Source of the DNA: an uncultured Thermoleophilaceae bacterium
GTDB taxonomy: Bacteria; Actinomycetota; Thermoleophilia; Solirubrobacterales; Thermoleophilaceae
Direction: 5' to 3'
NCBI GenBank assembly: GCA_963819115.1
Contig: CAWFUR010000012.1
Coordinates: forward strand, 163,706 to 227,705
DNA length: 64,000 nucleotides
Below are positions 29,299-47,701 of this stretch, piece by piece. Numbering within the stretch: the first letter of the stretch is position 1; every line of letters begins with the position of its first letter. The notes beneath the pieces are model-generated. The model did no database searches. It was not told the DNA's origin and saw nothing but the letters and a program-made list of their open reading frames with translations. The position numbers and the translations under genes are program-made.

Positions 29299-30477
29299 TC
29301 ATACGATCGGATGACCATCGGGCGCAGGAAGCCAGACGCGCACCACGGTTCCGCCCTCCGGTGGGGCGTCGATGTCCAGCCGGCCGCCGGCGGCTTGGGC
29401 GCGCTCGTCGCAGGAGGCGAGCCCGACGTGGCCCTCGGCGACCGCCGACCTCGCGCGTTCGGGGTCGAGCCCCCGGCCGTCGTCGGCGACCTCGAGCACG
29501 ACGCCGCCCGGGGCCGTCGCGACCGTCACCGCCACGTTGCCCGCCGCGGCGTGCTTCGCCGCGTTGGCGATCAGCTCGCGTGCCAAGGAGACCAGCAAGC
29601 TGTCCTGGAGACCACTCGCTTCGTCGGCGACGCTCAGACTCCAGCGGGCGCCACCTCGCTCGCTCTGGCGCTGGACCAGCGACCGCATGGCCGCTTCGAG
29701 GCCGGCATGCTCGAGCACGTAGGGATGGAGGTCGAAGATCGCCTCTCGAAGCTGCGTCAAGCTCCCCCGCACGGCGTCGCGGGCGCGCCGGAGGGCCTCC
29801 TGGTCCCCCCGCTCGGCCTCGTCGAGTTCCTGTCCCGCGGCCAGCAGGTCCTGGACGGCCTCGTCGTGGAGCGCCTCTGCCAGGCGCTTTCGCTCCCGCT
29901 CCTCGGCCCCCATCGTCTCGGCCAGCAACCGGGTCCGGGCCGCTGCGAGCTCCTCGATACGGCGAGCCCGGCGTGTCAACACGGCAGAGAGCAGCACGGC
30001 CGCGAGCCCGATCCAGGCCAGGTAGAGCGCCTGGGTGAGCACGAACTCGAAGTCCGCTCCGAGCTTGGTGGCGGGGTGGGGAAGCGAGATCCCGAGGTAG
30101 CCGGCCACCGCGGCGGCCGACCAGAGCGCGGTCCCACTCGGCGGCATCAGGAAGGCGGCTCCTATCGGGAGCAGGAAGAATGCGAGTCGAAGCTGCGAGA
30201 ACGCTCCACCCGAGACGTAGGTCAGCGCCAGCAGCAGCGTGAAGTCGACCGCCGCGTAGGCCGCGCCGGGCACGGCGGCCCCCCAGCCCTTGAGCTCGGC
30301 CACGAGGGCGGCGATAGCGTAGACCGTGGTGACAGCAAGCAGCCAGCCGAATGCCGCCTCGCCCGTTTGCGGATGCTCGACGAGCTGCTCGCCGACGAAG
30401 ATGACCGGGAGCGCGGCGACGCGGACGACTGCCACCGCCCGCTGCGCGGCGCGGGCGGCGACATCGCGGTCGCTCAC
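29299..30477 (-). CDS. sensor histidine kinase (NarL-type, HisKA_3)
   Basis: N-terminal TM helices. H-box LAEALHDEAVQDL, plus ELIANAAKHA and VADDGRGL boxes. The start overlaps the RR stop. Confidence 0.85.
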   Translation of the reverse strand: MSDRDVAARAAQRAVAVVRVAALPVIFVGEQLVEHPQTGEAAFGWLLAVTTVYAIAALVAELKGWGAAVPGAAYAAVDFTLLLALTYVSGGAFSQLRLAFFLLPIGAAFLMPPSGTALWSAAAVAGYLGISLPHPATKLGADFEFVLTQALYLAWIGLAAVLLSAVLTRRARRIEELAAARTRLLAETMGAEERERKRLAEALHDEAVQDLLAAGQELDEAERGDQEALRRARDAVRGSLTQLREAIFDLHPYVLEHAGLEAAMRSLVQRQSERGGARWSLSVADEASGLQDSLLVSLARELIANAAKHAAAGNVAVTVATAPGGVVLEVADDGRGLDPERARSAVAEGHVGLASCDERAQAAGGRLDIDAPPEGGTVVRVWLPAPDGHPIV

Positions 30478-39413: not shown

Positions 39414-41315
39414 GTGACGTCCCCGGCGACATCGCATCAGCATGCGCGCATCCGCGCGTCGCTGCACACGCTCGCCGAGTCCCGCGCGCAGATCCTCGCT
39501 GTGATCGCCGTCGTCGCGATCGCCGCCGGATTCTTGCTGCACGCGATCGGCGCAGGAGACGCCGGGCACCAGGTGTGGCGGGCCGCGGTGGCGCTGCTTG
39601 CCGCAGAGCTCGCGTTCGAGGTCGGTCGCACCGTTGTCGTCGATCATCACCTCGGCGTCGACACGATCGCGCTCGTCGCGATGGTTGGAGCGCTGGCGCT
39701 CGGCGAGGAACTCGCGGGCGCGGTCATCGGCCTGATGTTCACCGGTGGAGCGGCGCTTGAGGCGGCGGCATCCCGCCGCGCGCGCCGCGAGCTGACGCTT
39801 CTGGTCCAGCGCGCGCCGCGCGTCGCCCAACTGCGGATCGACCGCGGGCTCGAGGAGGTGCCGGTCGACCGTGTCCGCGCCGGGGACACGGTGCTCGTGC
39901 GCACGGGAGAGGTCGTGCCCGTCGACGGCATCGTGGTCGGGGACGAGGCCGTCGTGGACACCAGCACGCTCAGCGGCGAGCCGCTACCGGTCACGCTGCG
40001 TGCCGGGATGGCCGTGATGAGCGGCAGCGTCAACGCGGGCGGCCCGTTCGACGTGCGTGCCGACCGGCCCGCGGCCGAGAGCGCTTACGCCGCGCTGGTG
40101 CGGCTCGTAGAGCAGGCCCAGGCCCAGCGCGCCCCGTTCGTGCGGATGGCCGACCGCTACGCCGGCATTTTCCTGCCCATCACGCTCGTGGTCGCCGGCC
40201 TGGCGTGGGCGCTCAGCGGTGACCCCGTGCGGGCGCTGGCGGTGGTGGTCGTCGCGACGCCGTGCCCGCTCATCCTCGCTGCACCGATCGCGCTCGTCTC
40301 TGGCCTGTCACGCGCCGCGCGCAACGGCGTCATCGTCAAGGGCGCCGGCGCGATCGAGACCCTCGGCGAGGCCCGTACCGTCCTCTTCGACAAGACGGGC
40401 ACATTGACGGTCGGCACCCCGGAAGTCCGCGAGATCGTCTCGCTGAACGGCCTGGCCAGAGGCGAAGTCCTGCGGCTCGCCGCGTCCGTCGACCGCCTCT
40501 CCGCCCACGTGCTCGGCGAGGCGCTCGTCCGCGCGGCCCAGGAATCCGCGCTCGACCTGACGATGCCGAGCGACGTCGACGAGGAGCCCGGCCAGGGGAT
40601 CGCCGGCACGGTCGACGGCCGTCGCATCGCGGTCGGCAGCCGCGCCTTCCTGCGCGCCCAGGGGTACGACCCCGACGCCGTCGCCGCCGCCTCGCTTGCG
40701 ACCGGTCGCGGCTCCGGCGAGGCCCACGTGCTCGTCGGCGTCGAAGGCGAGCCTGCAGGCGTGATCGTGATGGCCGACGAGCTGCGCCCCGACGCCGACA
40801 GCATCGTCGACCGCCTGCGCCGGGAGGGTGTGCGCCACGTCGCGATGGTCTCCGGCGACCGGGCCTCGGTGGCACAGCGGATCGGCGACATGCTCGGCGT
40901 GGATCGCGTCTACGCCGAGCAGTCGCCCGAGGACAAGCTCGAGGTCGTCCGCACGCTGCGCAACGACCCGGCGCTCAGCCCCGTGATCATGGTCGGCGAC
41001 GGCGTCAATGACGCACCCGCGCTGGCGATCGCCGACCTCGGCATCGCGATGGGTGCCGCAGGCGCCACGGTCTCGTCCGAGACCGCCGACGCCGTCATCA
41101 CCGTCGACCGCGTCGATCGCGTCGCCGACGCCGTCCACACCGGGCGCCGAGCGCTGTTCATCGCCCGCCAGAGCGTTCTCGCCGGCATGGGGCTGAGCAT
41201 CGCGGCGATGGGCGTCGCGGCCGCCGGCTACCTCCAGCCGGTTGCCGGCGCGCTCTTCCAGGAGGTCGTCGATGTCGCCGTCATCCTCAACGCGCTGCGG
41301 GCATTGCGCGGATAG
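39414..41315 (+). CDS. heavy-metal-translocating P1B-type ATPase (no N-terminal HMA domain)
   Basis: CPC motif (ATPCPLILAAP), phosphorylation site DKTGTLT and hinge GDGVNDAPAL. Confidence 0.9.
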   Translation: MTSPATSHQHARIRASLHTLAESRAQILAVIAVVAIAAGFLLHAIGAGDAGHQVWRAAVALLAAELAFEVGRTVVVDHHLGVDTIALVAMVGALALGEELAGAVIGLMFTGGAALEAAASRRARRELTLLVQRAPRVAQLRIDRGLEEVPVDRVRAGDTVLVRTGEVVPVDGIVVGDEAVVDTSTLSGEPLPVTLRAGMAVMSGSVNAGGPFDVRADRPAAESAYAALVRLVEQAQAQRAPFVRMADRYAGIFLPITLVVAGLAWALSGDPVRALAVVVVATPCPLILAAPIALVSGLSRAARNGVIVKGAGAIETLGEARTVLFDKTGTLTVGTPEVREIVSLNGLARGEVLRLAASVDRLSAHVLGEALVRAAQESALDLTMPSDVDEEPGQGIAGTVDGRRIAVGSRAFLRAQGYDPDAVAAASLATGRGSGEAHVLVGVEGEPAGVIVMADELRPDADSIVDRLRREGVRHVAMVSGDRASVAQRIGDMLGVDRVYAEQSPEDKLEVVRTLRNDPALSPVIMVGDGVNDAPALAIADLGIAMGAAGATVSSETADAVITVDRVDRVADAVHTGRRALFIARQSVLAGMGLSIAAMGVAAAGYLQPVAGALFQEVVDVAVILNALRALRG

Positions 41316-41751: not shown

Positions 41752-42913
41752 ATGACCAAGGCGTCCGGCGTTCCGGAGCCCCGCCGCGCCGTTGACGCCG
41801 GCGCGGGTGCAATGGCCTGGCGGTTCGGCGATGCGCTGCGGGTCGGCGACGGCGCCGCCGCCGAGCGCGTCGTGGCGGCGCTGGAAGCCGTCCAGTCTCT
41901 AGTCATCGCGCCGGCAATGGTCAGAATCGGCGAGCTCTGGCAGTCGCGGCTCATCGGCGTGGCCGACGAGCACCTGGCGACATCGATCAGCCAACGGTCG
42001 TTGATCCGCGTGTTCGAGACGATCAGCGCGAACCGGGACCGCGGGCGCTCCCGTGAGCGGGTGCTGCTCGCTGCGGTCGAGGGCCAGCATCATGTGCTCG
42101 GGCTGCGCATGGTGGCCGACGTCCTCGAGGGCGCCGGGTTCGACGTCCTCTACACCGGCGAGGACGTCCCAGTGGAGAGCCTGCGCGACGCCGTCGCCAA
42201 GCATCGCCCCGCGGTCGTGGGACTCGCGTTCGGGATCGCCTCGGACGTGAGCTGTCTGGCCGACTCGCTGTGGGCCATCCACGAGGTCGCTCCCGAGACG
42301 CGCGTCATGCTCGGTGGTCGCGCCGTACCGCCCGGGCTCCGGACCGGCGGATACGCCTGGGTCGCGACGACCATGGAGGTCGTCGCCGCGGTCGAGGATC
42401 TGCTCGCGGGGCCGGGCCAGCCGCTGCCTGAGTTTGTCGACCTGATGCGCTCCCCCGCAGGCGACGATCATGGGCCGCGCGAGCATTCGGTCGAGCCCGA
42501 TGGCGTCGCGGCGCAGCTGGCCAGGGCGGCTGACGAAGCGACGGGTCTCGCCCGCAAGCACGTTCGCCGTGCCGCGACGTACCGGGATCTGGCCTTTCGC
42601 GACCCGCTGACAGGCCTGCCCATGTTCGGCCCGGCGACACCGTGGCCCGCTTCGGCGGCGACGAGTTGCCGTCCTGCTGCCCCACGGCACGCCGGCGATC
42701 GCCGGCGAGATCGGCGACCGCATCCGCTCTGCCGTGGCTGCCACCGTGGACCCGGCCGTAAGCGTGAGCGTCGGGGTGGCTGAGCTTGAGCACGACGCAC
42801 GCCTCGGGGTGCTTGCGGCCGACACGGCGCTGTACGAGGCGAAGGCGGGCGGCCGTGACCGCGTCGAGATGGCGCGCCCCCGGAAGGCTCCCGACAGCCG
42901 GGGACCGGGCTGA
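41752..42913 (+). pseudogene. CarH-type B12-binding domain / GGDEF protein, decayed (internal deletion plus frameshifts)
   Basis: The N-terminus is intact, with ELWQSRLIGVADEH (W-x9-EH) and GQHHVLG. DPLTGL is then joined directly to RPGDTVARFGGDE in another frame. A 1-nt loss follows (gag tt-gcc) before AVLLPHGT...LYEAKAGGRDRV, which ends at TGA 42911-42913. Confidence 0.8.
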
Positions 42914-42916
42914 CCG

Positions 42917-43225
42917 ATGTACGTCTCGATGTCACGATTGGCGATCCCGGGTGAGCGCGCCCCCGAGCTGGTCGCGGCATTTCGCGCTCGTTCGCGGCTG
43001 GCCGATGCGGCCGACGGGTTCATCGACCTCCAGGTCTGGCAGTCCGATCGTGACCCCGGGGAGATCCTGATGGTCAGTCGCTGGACCGACCGCGAGTCCT
43101 TCAAGGCCTACATGAAGAGCGATGCGCACAAGGCCTCGCACGATCGCATCGATCCGGAGCTCAAGGCCGACATCAAGCTCCTGCGGCTCGATCATCTCCA
43201 CACCTACGAGGTGGTTGTCGAATGA
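42917..43225 (+). CDS. ABM-fold monooxygenase, IsdG/MhuD-like (putative heme-degrading)
   Basis: 102 aa. RWTDRESFKAYMKSDAHKASHDRI parallels the IsdG segment [23 protein letters not shown]. Confidence 0.7.
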   Translation: MYVSMSRLAIPGERAPELVAAFRARSRLADAADGFIDLQVWQSDRDPGEILMVSRWTDRESFKAYMKSDAHKASHDRIDPELKADIKLLRLDHLHTYEVVVE

Positions 43226-45619: not shown

Positions 45620-45928
45620 ATGTACATCTCCATGTCGCATCTGCGCATCTGTCCCGAGCGTGCCCCGGAGCTGATCGATGCATTCAGAGACCGGTGCGGT
45701 CTCGTCGAGGGCCACGTCGGTTTCATCGACCTGCAGGTCTGGCAGTCCGACCGCGACGCCGGCGAGGTCGTCATGGTGAGCCGCTGGAGCGACCGCGCGG
45801 CTTTCAAGGCCTACATGAAGAGTGCGGACCACCGGATGTCCCATGAGCGCATCGATGCGGGGCTGCGCTCGGAGATCAAGCTGGAGGCCCTGCAGCACAT
45901 GCACACGTTCGAGGTGGTCGCAGAATGA
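45620..45928 (+). CDS. ABM-fold monooxygenase, IsdG/MhuD-like (putative heme-degrading)
   Basis: 102 aa with RWSDRAAFKAYMKSADHRMSHERI. Lies 4 nt after the upstream stop. Confidence 0.7.
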   Translation: MYISMSHLRICPERAPELIDAFRDRCGLVEGHVGFIDLQVWQSDRDAGEVVMVSRWSDRAAFKAYMKSADHRMSHERIDAGLRSEIKLEALQHMHTFEVVAE

Positions 45929-46374
45929 GCCGCCCGATGCCTCCCAGCGGAGCCAACCCGCCCGTGCGGGCGCAGACCGCCGCGGGCGTCCCGATCGAGC
46001 TCTTGCCGCTTGCCCAGGACATCTGTCGCCGCTACCGGGCCGAGTTCCCCGACGAGGAGGACCGCTACGGGCCCGCGGGCCAGGCCTGGTGCGTCCACGA
46101 CAACCAGTACCTGCTGGCCTGGGCGATCCAGGATGCCCGCGACGGCACCGTCGAACTCGGCGAGCAGGCTGCCTGGCTCGCCGATATCCTCGACTCCCGC
46201 GGCTTCCCCGTCGCCCGGCTGGCTCGCAATCTCAAGATCGCCGCCGCCGTCGTCGTCGAGGGCATCGGCGAGCGGTCGTTCGCCGATGATGTCGCAAGCC
46301 GTCTCGTGGCCGTGGCCGCCGCCGTCGACCTCTGGCAGCGGGTGCCGGAGCATGACGCCCCGCCGCCAGCTTGA
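45925..46374 (+). CDS. small helical protein of unknown family with conserved Cys/His motifs
   Basis: ATGA overlap with the upstream gene. ICRRYRAEFPDEEDRYGPAGQAWCVHDNQYLLAWA and WLADILDSRGFPVARLARNLKIAA are conserved with 43222-43635. Confidence 0.7.
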   Translation: MSRPMPPSGANPPVRAQTAAGVPIELLPLAQDICRRYRAEFPDEEDRYGPAGQAWCVHDNQYLLAWAIQDARDGTVELGEQAAWLADILDSRGFPVARLARNLKIAAAVVVEGIGERSFADDVASRLVAVAAAVDLWQRVPEHDAPPPA

Positions 46375-46405: not shown

Positions 46406-47701
46406 TCAGCGCCAGTCGAAATGCTCGCGGTGAATGCGCCTTGCCGGAACACCCGCGAGCCGCAGTTGTGTCTGGAAGGCTCGCAGCATCCCCTGGGGTC
46501 CGCACATGAACACCGACAGCCCGCTCGCGTCGCCCCCGGCGGTGGCGAGGACCTGCGCGGTCGTGAGGCGTCCCTGGTCGCTGGTATCGACCAGATGGGC
46601 CTGCAGCGATTCATGGCGGTCGGCGATCGCACAAATCTCGTCGGCGAAGGGCGCCTCCCCTTCCGCGGAGTAGAAGAAGTCCACCCGGTGGGGCAGATGA
46701 CCGTCGAGGGCGCGCAGCCAGCTGAGAAATGGCGCTACGCCGACGCCACCTGCGATCCACACCTGCCGGTCGGTGCCGCGCAAATGGTTGAAGCGCCCGT
46801 GGGGACCGCCGATGACCGCCGGCATGCCCGGTTCGATCAGGTCCTTCAGGCGGGAGGTGTAATCGCCAAGCGCTTTGACCGTCACGCGCAGGACGCCCTC
46901 GTGCGGCGCGCTCGAGATGGTGAACGGGTGCCGATGCCAGCCGTCCTTCGCCTCGAGATAGACCATCGCGAACTGGCCCGGGATGAAGTCGATTCCGCGG
47001 CCTAATGGCCGCATCGCGACCTCGACGAGACCTGCTTCGATCTCCCGGACGGCATCCACCTGATAGTCGTGTAGCGAGGCGAAGAAGCGCGCCAGCAGCT
47101 CTCGGTAGACGTAGAAGCCCAGACCGACTCCACCGACTCCGACCAAGGCCCAGCGCAGGATCGGCGCCTCGCGGAAAGGGGTGCCGTCGAGCACCCCGTG
47201 CGCGAAGCCTGCGGCGACGAACAGGCCGGTGGTGCGATGTAGCGCCCGCCAACGGTCATAGCCGCCGAAGACACGGCGGGCTCCGCGTATACCGGGCGCG
47301 TCGCGAACCGCAAGCACCACACCCCGCAAGGCTGCCGGCACGACCGATTGCCATCGCGGCAGGATCGCCCACAGGGCGAGCGCCACCAAACCGATCGCCC
47401 CGATCGCACCGAGGGGTCCGCCGAATCCGGTGCCATGAGAGCTTGCGGACAGCAGCACGTGCGGCGCTAGCAGGATCAGGCCTGTGATCGCAAGCCGGCG
47501 ATGCCAGATCGCCGCCCGGTCGATCCCGTCGAACCACTCCTCCACCCAGGGCAGGGTGCTGATGAGCACGAGCGCGATCGACAGCAGCAGGATCGACTCG
47601 CCGCCAAGCAGCTGGCCGAGGTAGCTGCCCACGGGTTGATCAACAGGCCGCGCCAACGCCCAGAGGACGGCCTGGGCGATGACGAGGGCGCCAATCGTCA
47701 T
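46406..47701 (-). CDS. ferric reductase/NOX-like flavocytochrome (heme-b TM domain + FAD + NAD(P)H domains)
   Basis: TM domain with His-bearing helices, HPFTISS (FAD motif), WIAGGVGVAPFLS (NAD motif) and a C-terminal MCGPQGM block. Confidence 0.8.
   Translation of the reverse strand: MTIGALVIAQAVLWALARPVDQPVGSYLGQLLGGESILLLSIALVLISTLPWVEEWFDGIDRAAIWHRRLAITGLILLAPHVLLSASSHGTGFGGPLGAIGAIGLVALALWAILPRWQSVVPAALRGVVLAVRDAPGIRGARRVFGGYDRWRALHRTTGLFVAAGFAHGVLDGTPFREAPILRWALVGVGGVGLGFYVYRELLARFFASLHDYQVDAVREIEAGLVEVAMRPLGRGIDFIPGQFAMVYLEAKDGWHRHPFTISSAPHEGVLRVTVKALGDYTSRLKDLIEPGMPAVIGGPHGRFNHLRGTDRQVWIAGGVGVAPFLSWLRALDGHLPHRVDFFYSAEGEAPFADEICAIADRHESLQAHLVDTSDQGRLTTAQVLATAGGDASGLSVFMCGPQGMLRAFQTQLRLAGVPARRIHREHFDWR

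Follow-up and report, generated by a model that had tools for sequence, protein, structure and literature searches.

A probable stand-alone photoglobin coupled to an IsdG-like ABM gene beside B12-binding sensors in a Thermoleophilaceae bacterium

The window, a stretch of 64,000 nucleotides from an uncultured Thermoleophilaceae bacterium, carries the same cassette twice: a gene for a B12-binding sensor is followed by one for an IsdG-like ABM-domain protein and then by one for a small helical protein with conserved cysteine and histidine residues. The question raised by this arrangement is what the third protein is and what its conserved residues hold. The original prediction had regarded it as an uncharacterised, unnamed family, a description that has to be given up, since the protein fits the photoglobins (PMC8717448), whose fused counterparts, the photocobilins, are biliverdin-binding proteins of known crystal structure (PMC10979010). 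Because related proteins fuse such a globin to a B12-binding module, and others join an ABM domain to a B12-binding module and a GGDEF domain, we propose, with a probability of roughly 0.6, that the protein is the free-standing photoglobin of a split photocobilin-type sensor, its pocket holding a linear tetrapyrrole.

Genes of the two cassettes and their distribution

The features of the two cassettes and of the genes next to them are collected in Table 1. The globins P0001 and P0002 are encoded by intact reading frames and share 57% identity over 129 residues (E 3e-40), and the two long blocks that had been reported as common to them are indeed present in both sequences. The expected coupling to the ABM gene was likewise borne out in each copy, the globin start overlapping the ABM stop by 4 nt (gcagaATGAgcc at 45925-45928 and gtcgaATGAccg at 43222-43225).

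Table 1. Positions of the cassette genes and of neighbouring features in the window
Feature	Protein	Position	Strand	Length	Description
Heavy-metal P-type ATPase		39414-41315	+		TIGR01525, 511 bits; just upstream of the decayed cassette
Second B12-binding module	P0270	41752..42913	+		Sensor motifs intact; GGDEF decayed; annotated ORF ends at 42783
Paralogous ABM-domain protein	P0273	42917..43225	+	102 aa	64% identical to P0272; stop overlaps globin start
Paralogous putative stand-alone photoglobin	P0002	43222..43635	+	137 aa	Decayed cassette; same pocket residues (WCRHD)
B12-binding_2 + B12-binding + GGDEF	P0271	44278..45615	+		CarH/photocobilin-type module; GxxW, Wx9EH, GxxH and GxxxP motifs; intact cyclase (RxxD I-site, GGDEF)
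ABM-domain protein	P0272	45620..45928	+	102 aa	IsdG-like; Ser6/Tyr65/His75 at Asn/Trp/His positions; stop overlaps globin start (ATGA)
Putative stand-alone photoglobin	P0001	45925..46374	+	149 aa	PPSGAxPP N-terminus, beta-hairpin, five-helix globin; candidate pocket C56-x-H58-D59, W84, L89
Ferric-reductase-like flavocytochrome		46406-47701	-		Ferric_reduct TM, FAD_binding_8 and NAD_binding_1; convergent, ends 32 nt past the globin gene

The sensor genes at the head of the cassettes carry the motifs listed for light-responsive cobalamin domains (GxxW, EH, GxxH and GxxxP; PMC11796333), in the form of GELW, DEH (Wx9EH), GEHH and GADVP in P0271 and of GELW, DEH, GQHH and GEDVP in P0270. Among solved structures, the B12 module of P0271 is closest to the photocobilin SasPcob (8j2w, E 4.5e-18), followed by CarH (2e-11). 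In the left-hand copy, the GGDEF region (42590-42913) has lost about 55 aa between DPLTGL and RPGD. A frame change takes DPLTGL directly into RPGDTVARFGGDE, and a further change, to a third frame, carries the remainder up to 42913. The sensor part, the ABM gene and the globin gene of this cassette are all intact despite the decay of the cyclase. B12-only sensors ahead of an ABM-globin pair also occur naturally elsewhere, at loci L017 and L018.

The flavocytochrome, which might donate electrons to an IsdG-type enzyme, was rejected as a conserved partner in this role: none of 80 related loci has a homologue. An ATPase similar to the one upstream adjoins the cassette of locus L002, on the opposite strand. 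No tRNA was found between positions 30000 and 50000 of the window. Beyond the two cassettes, the bacterium's own genome (96% complete) contains no further ABM gene or globin, and no CarH-type module either apart from a 1196-aa ORF, presumably a methionine synthase; a search of the same genome for heme oxygenase (PF01126) found none. Of 201 genomes sampled from the class, 4 contain the globin family, and a search of one other genome of the genus did not find it. It is thus a sporadic accessory gene, and these two observations make the cassette region look accessory and possibly transferred.

The family as a whole comprises 360 homologues at E<=1e-3 in a 90%-clustered database; among 1.84 billion representatives, it forms 199 clusters at 50% identity. 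Where names are given they read 'hypothetical protein', and the hosts are Solirubrobacterales, Gaiella and other Actinomycetota. Neither globin was matched by the Pfam and NCBIfam scans, with no Pfam hit at E<=0.1, and a genome-wide search with the phycobilisome family (PF00502) did not match them either. A profile built from a 74-sequence alignment listed close members alone in a database of 5.8 billion proteins, while the ESM Atlas, queried by features and shape, returned the family's own unnamed clusters together with one weak cluster tagged Phycobilisome.

Fold and pocket of the globin

To characterize the third protein structurally, a model of P0001 was generated with AlphaFold2 from the 59-sequence alignment of its close subfamily. 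The model (pLDDT 92.8, pTM 0.86) comprises a short beta-hairpin (residues 15-25) followed by five helices and adopts a globin fold. The test for a globin-like or phycobiliprotein-like fold that the original prediction had called for thus came out positive. The top Foldseek matches in the PDB were all phycobiliproteins (probability 1.0, TM ~0.6, E ~1e-2), and the first rank of an exhaustive VIA-align comparison was taken by residues 230-345 of 8j2w_B, the C-terminal biliverdin-binding globin of a photocobilin (Z 12.7, rmsd 2.7 A over 114 residues). Allophycocyanins (Z 12.5 and 12.3), the RsbR-type stressosome globin 3zta (Z 12.0) and the photocobilin 8j2y (Z 10.7) came next, and the heme sensor globins DosC and GCS (Z 9.6-10.5) and the RsbR-type 2bnl (Z 8.8) stood lower. 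A Z of about 12-13 is by itself not decisive for helical proteins; the matches obtained here span the whole domain and belong to one superfamily. In the subfamily, residues 1-25 of P0001 (45925-45999), with the P-P-S-G-A-x-P-P stretch and the beta-hairpin, are nearly invariant and take the place of the X/Y helices of phycobiliproteins; this N-terminus may be a docking element.

The globin agrees with the published definition of photoglobins, which have an aspartate in the third core helix, a leucine in the fourth and a Cys, Ser or Thr three residues before the aspartate (C46/D49/L80; PMC8717448). It combines a phycocyanin-like fold, the aspartate and leucine at these helices, and adjacency or fusion to a B12-binding module, and its C-x2-D-x29-L spacing is to be compared with the C46/D49/L80 positions.

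The proximity of RsbR-type globins in structure, together with a precomputed RsbRD_N match in two homologues, raises the alternative of a globin without any tetrapyrrole, which would serve as a regulatory cap shielding the corrin edge of the B12 module or as an RsbR-like, non-heme sensor of another ligand. The globin of photocobilins also covers the corrin edge (PMC10979010), and AbPcob binds biliverdin weakly. The residues conserved in the present family are, however, exactly those of a bilin pocket (Asp59, Trp84, Leu89 and Cys56), and its obligate partner is a relative of heme enzymes that keeps the heme-ligating histidine, which makes a tetrapyrrole-free globin quite unlikely.

The globin fold itself, the presence of heme sensor globins among the matches and the resemblance of the ABM partner to heme-binding proteins could also be read in favour of intact heme, bound through His58 and/or Cys56, with the globin either sensing heme or redox state or exchanging heme with the ABM protein, as donor or acceptor. 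Against this, the fold provides no proximal histidine, the equivalent position being the conserved Leu89, as in photoglobins (PMC8717448), and the nearest structural neighbours are non-heme globins. Heme ligation by the conserved Cys and His, one of the two roles originally suggested for them, finds no support, and we consider an intact-heme globin very unlikely.

Residue-level evidence for a linear tetrapyrrole comes from profile searches of PDB sequences. The close-subfamily profile (A1) returned only LIM-domain noise; with a profile built on 74 diverse cluster representatives (A2), HMMER ranked allophycocyanin-type chains at the top (E 0.016-0.8) and reached 8j2w at E 0.83, all marginal values. 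Although these E-values are marginal, the alignments are mutually consistent: 'aWCvhDnqyllaWa' falls on 'ATCLRDMDYYLRYA' and aWCvhD on ATCLRD, which places Cys56 on the bilin-attachment cysteine, His58 on the arginine and Asp59 on the aspartate of CxRD, and Leu89 on the pocket tyrosine of phycobiliproteins. When the fused relatives P0198 and P0277 were compared with the PDB by phmmer, the B12 part alone was aligned. By the offsets of the ranges matched in VIA-align, rather than by a residue alignment, Asp59 and Trp84 would correspond to Asp270 and Trp296 of SasPcob. The CxHD motif is a variant, in that CXRD is reported for phycobiliproteins and BBAG-1/3 and CXQD for photoglobins (PMC10151467).

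The invariance claimed for the cysteines and the histidine holds within the close subfamily, where C34, W55, C56, H58, D59, N60, W66 and W84 are all found in 59 of 59 sequences; it does not extend to the wider family. Among the 74 representatives, W84 and R92 are kept in 73, W66 in 72, D59 in 71 and L89 in 70, followed by H58 (64), C56 (55, or 74% of family clusters) and C34 (36, or 49%). Position 56 is otherwise occupied by Ala (8), Gly (3) or, in the rest, Ser, Thr, Glu or His, and CxHD is found in 49 clusters and CxRD in one. By these counts the pocket Asp, Trp and Leu are constants of the family, and the cysteine is a majority feature, which agrees with what has been described for photoglobins at large. 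The suggestion of a bilin thioether thus gains from the register of C56-x-H58-D59 with the phycobiliprotein C-x-R-D and loses from the patchy occurrence of the cysteine. Since the cysteine is not family-wide, and since SasPcob binds biliverdin non-covalently without one, we hold a covalent linkage at Cys56 as tentative, with odds somewhat short of even.

The same residues might instead form a metal site or a redox-active disulfide independent of any chromophore, with Cys34, Cys56 and His58 as the participants. C34 and C56 do occur together in 33 of the 74 clusters, and weak matches of the C...C.HD stretch to LIM zinc fingers were obtained at E ~2; these matches are noise, however, and C34 is missing from half and C56 from a quarter of the family while Asp59, Trp84 and Leu89 persist. 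Such a site therefore seems highly improbable, and the bilin pocket is retained as the preferred reading of these residues.

The ABM partner and the conserved neighbourhood

Both ABM proteins of the window score 58-62 bits against the Pfam ABM family. They fall far below the cut-offs of the NCBIfam equivalogs for heme degraders (HmuQ, IsdG and IsdI), the best being HmuQ with 34-36 bits against a cut-off of 130. Among solved proteins, their top sequence matches are TT1380 (1iuj), an uncharacterised protein from Thermus, and otherwise mainly heme degraders, namely B. subtilis HmoB, the heme-degrading monooxygenase 8avh and IsdG, with MhuD and IsdI weaker. Alignments to HmoB, TT1380 and 8avh were used to map the active site. 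We take the catalytic Asn, which is the residue altered in 4fvc, a variant of HmoB, to correspond to Ser6, the Trp to Tyr65 and the heme-ligating His to His75. Across 71 members of the ABM family, Ser6 is found in 70, Tyr65 in 70 and His75 in all 71, so that two of the three catalytic residues of the IsdG-type Asn/Trp/His triad are missing and the heme-ligating His is kept. Given these Ser/Tyr/His residues and the scores below the equivalog cut-offs, the protein is a relative of IsdG with an altered active site. Judged from its sequence, heme binding by the ABM protein is plausible; the loss of two of three IsdG catalytic residues makes heme cleavage uncertain.

The gene neighbourhood was surveyed in 80 loci from species-representative genomes, found with the close-subfamily alignment and thus biased toward CxHD members. 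In 71 of 78 informative loci, the gene immediately upstream of the globin gene, in the same orientation, is an ABM gene; start and stop can overlap by 4 nt in 60 of 72. The survey recovered a B12-binding gene at about 42 of the 78 loci, ~18 of them with a GGDEF output and ~18 of the MerR-B12 type (CarH/LitR-like); run by tblastn over 5 kb on each side, it undercounts divergent B12 genes. The B12 gene of locus L062, for example, was missed with the B12 query from the window and recovered only by Pfam and a CarH-type query. The statement that the globin is always third in its cassette therefore stands for the ABM gene directly ahead of it but not for the B12 gene, and the difference between these two frequencies marks the ABM-globin pair as the constant unit.

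A regulator with a MerR HTH, B12-binding_2 and B12-binding precedes the pair at L062 (3811-4665) and at ~17 further loci (e.g. L080, L056 and L027); as such regulators are of the CarH/LitR type, the module also accompanies transcriptional B12 photoreceptors. A different neighbour is found at seven loci of the surveyed set (L019, L020, L023, L028, L031, L033 and L053) and at L003, where a luciferase-like monooxygenase (PF00296, 75-87% identical to one another) lies directly downstream and no B12 sensor is detectable upstream. This enzyme perhaps modifies the bilin.

The constancy of the pair can be taken to mean that the ABM protein and the globin form a module primarily for breaking down heme and handling the product, in which the ABM protein degrades heme and the globin sequesters or carries the bilin, light sensing is secondary or does not occur at all, and B12 sensors are occasional neighbours. 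Along with the higher frequency of the ABM gene, about half of the loci have no B12 gene within 5 kb, the luciferase-like loci have their monooxygenase instead, and one homologue stands alone. In contrast, both copies in the window follow a B12 sensor, the tblastn counts over 5 kb on either side are too low for divergent B12 genes such as that of L062, and domain fusions physically join all the parts. The globin is fused to B12-binding_2 and B12-binding, in either order, in P0132, P0206, P0198 and P0277, and an ABM domain shares the chain in 11 of the 120 top-scoring relatives of the B12 module, in ten cases along with GGDEF. These ABM fusions, all metagenomic (P0275, P0276, P0278, P0281, P0301, P0312, P0316, P0320, P0338, P0366 and P0336), measure 550-608 aa for the B12-binding_2, B12-binding, GGDEF and ABM architecture and 400 aa for B12 and ABM without GGDEF. 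In some organisms the ABM domain is therefore physically part of the sensor, and we regard a module devoted primarily to heme breakdown as unlikely. The domain packing in a model of the fused relative P0132 was discarded, its pTM being 0.52 and its domain order opposite to that of SasPcob.

A proposed split sensor and its relation to known systems

In the split photocobilin that we propose, Cys56-x-His58-Asp59 on the long central helix, with Trp84 and Leu89 on the next helix, would form a pocket for a linear tetrapyrrole. Because their genes are translationally coupled, the globin and the ABM protein would be made in fixed proportion. For the ABM protein, heme binding through His75 is most likely; it would supply or hand over an open-chain product, which the globin would take up in its CxHD/Trp84/Leu89 pocket, possibly with a thioether at Cys56. 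The loaded globin would then dock on the B12-binding module of the adjacent CarH-type photoreceptor-diguanylate cyclase, where the bilin could extend the light response of adenosylcobalamin to longer wavelengths. Light would shift the oligomeric state of the sensor and hence c-di-GMP synthesis; for the fused AbDPcob, light control of c-di-GMP synthesis has been demonstrated (PMC10979010).

A more far-reaching version of this scheme, which we consider doubtful, makes the Ser/Tyr/His ABM protein a new tetrapyrrole-opening or tetrapyrrole-transferring enzyme that feeds a photoreceptor. The bilin, possibly of the IsdG/MhuD type rather than biliverdin, would be passed on co-translationally and fixed to Cys56 without a lyase, and the outcome would be a three-protein, two-colour B12/bilin sensor. 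If this were true, an IsdG-type protein would for the first time be seen to provide the chromophore of a photoreceptor, and the photoglobins would include one with a covalent bilin. In either version, several hundred sequences labelled 'hypothetical protein', mostly from soil Thermoleophilia and other Actinomycetota, would gain a name and a testable function. The cassette would represent a naturally split form of photocobilin, with the bilin-binding part, the partner that probably supplies the chromophore and the B12 module each residing in a small protein of its own, a form convenient for biochemistry and optogenetic engineering. Moreover, the near-obligate, divergent IsdG-like partner in genomes without a canonical heme oxygenase raises the question of which chromophore these photoglobins carry.

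Stand-alone photoglobins beside B12 genes were known beforehand (Schneider 2021/22, PMC8717448). Like the present protein, they are non-heme globins with a phycocyanin-like pocket, a conserved Asp and Leu and, in some members, a Cys; they too are stand-alone or fused, lie next to B12-binding_2 and B12-binding, and have GGDEF and MerR among their outputs. ABM, luciferase-like and heme oxygenase genes have been recorded in their neighbourhoods. The globins described here differ in carrying CxHD (49 of 74 clusters) instead of CXQD (PMC10151467), in the PPSGAxPP and beta-hairpin N-terminus, as judged against the published description (PMC8717448), and in their near-obligate coupling to the ABM gene, which that work mentions in passing.

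The fused photocobilins SasPcob and AbDPcob (8j2w and 8j2y; Zhang 2024, PMC10979010) offer the top-ranking structural match to the globin as well as the closest solved relative of the B12 module. The logic of B12 module, globin and diguanylate cyclase is the same, and the contact residues appear to be retained, by offset, as D59 and W84. Photocobilins are single polypeptides with the order DGC-CBD-globin, whereas here the genes are separate, the sensor has the order CBD-GGDEF and the ABM gene lies between the B12 and globin genes. Biliverdin in SasPcob is held non-covalently by Asp270 and Trp296 (PMC10979010), the photocobilins having no Cys at this site, and the similarity between the globins at the level of sequence is marginal (E 0.83).

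In the case of BBAG-2, for which bilin binding, namely of biliverdin, has been shown (Rockwell 2023, PMC10151467), the globins likewise come from non-photosynthetic bacteria, where they accompany a heme-opening enzyme and a B12-binding protein. The BBAG-2 proteins have an RGMC motif and no CXRD, their partners are a canonical heme oxygenase and a pre-PcyA reductase instead of an ABM protein, and their hosts are Myxococcales, whereas the present globin belongs to Thermoleophilia and other Actinomycetota. Phycobiliproteins (PF00502) of the allophycocyanin beta type share the globin core (TM ~0.6, Z ~12), with the bilin Cys, the Asp and the pocket hydrophobic residue in register by the marginal profile alignments. 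They differ in that the present globins have no PF00502 match, carry His in place of Arg and lack the X/Y helices for alpha-beta assembly; they come from a non-phototrophic host, and lyase genes were not seen. The ABM partner, for its part, has the ABM fold and the invariant heme-ligating His of IsdG, IsdI, MhuD and HmoB, but Ser instead of the catalytic Asn and Tyr instead of the Trp, each in 70 of 71 members.

As the Schneider, Zhang and Rockwell papers already cover proteins of this kind, the globin is an unannotated member and not a new family. What is less ordinary is the near-obligate, coupled Ser/Tyr/His ABM protein, the genome without a canonical heme oxygenase and the retained cysteine at the attachment site.
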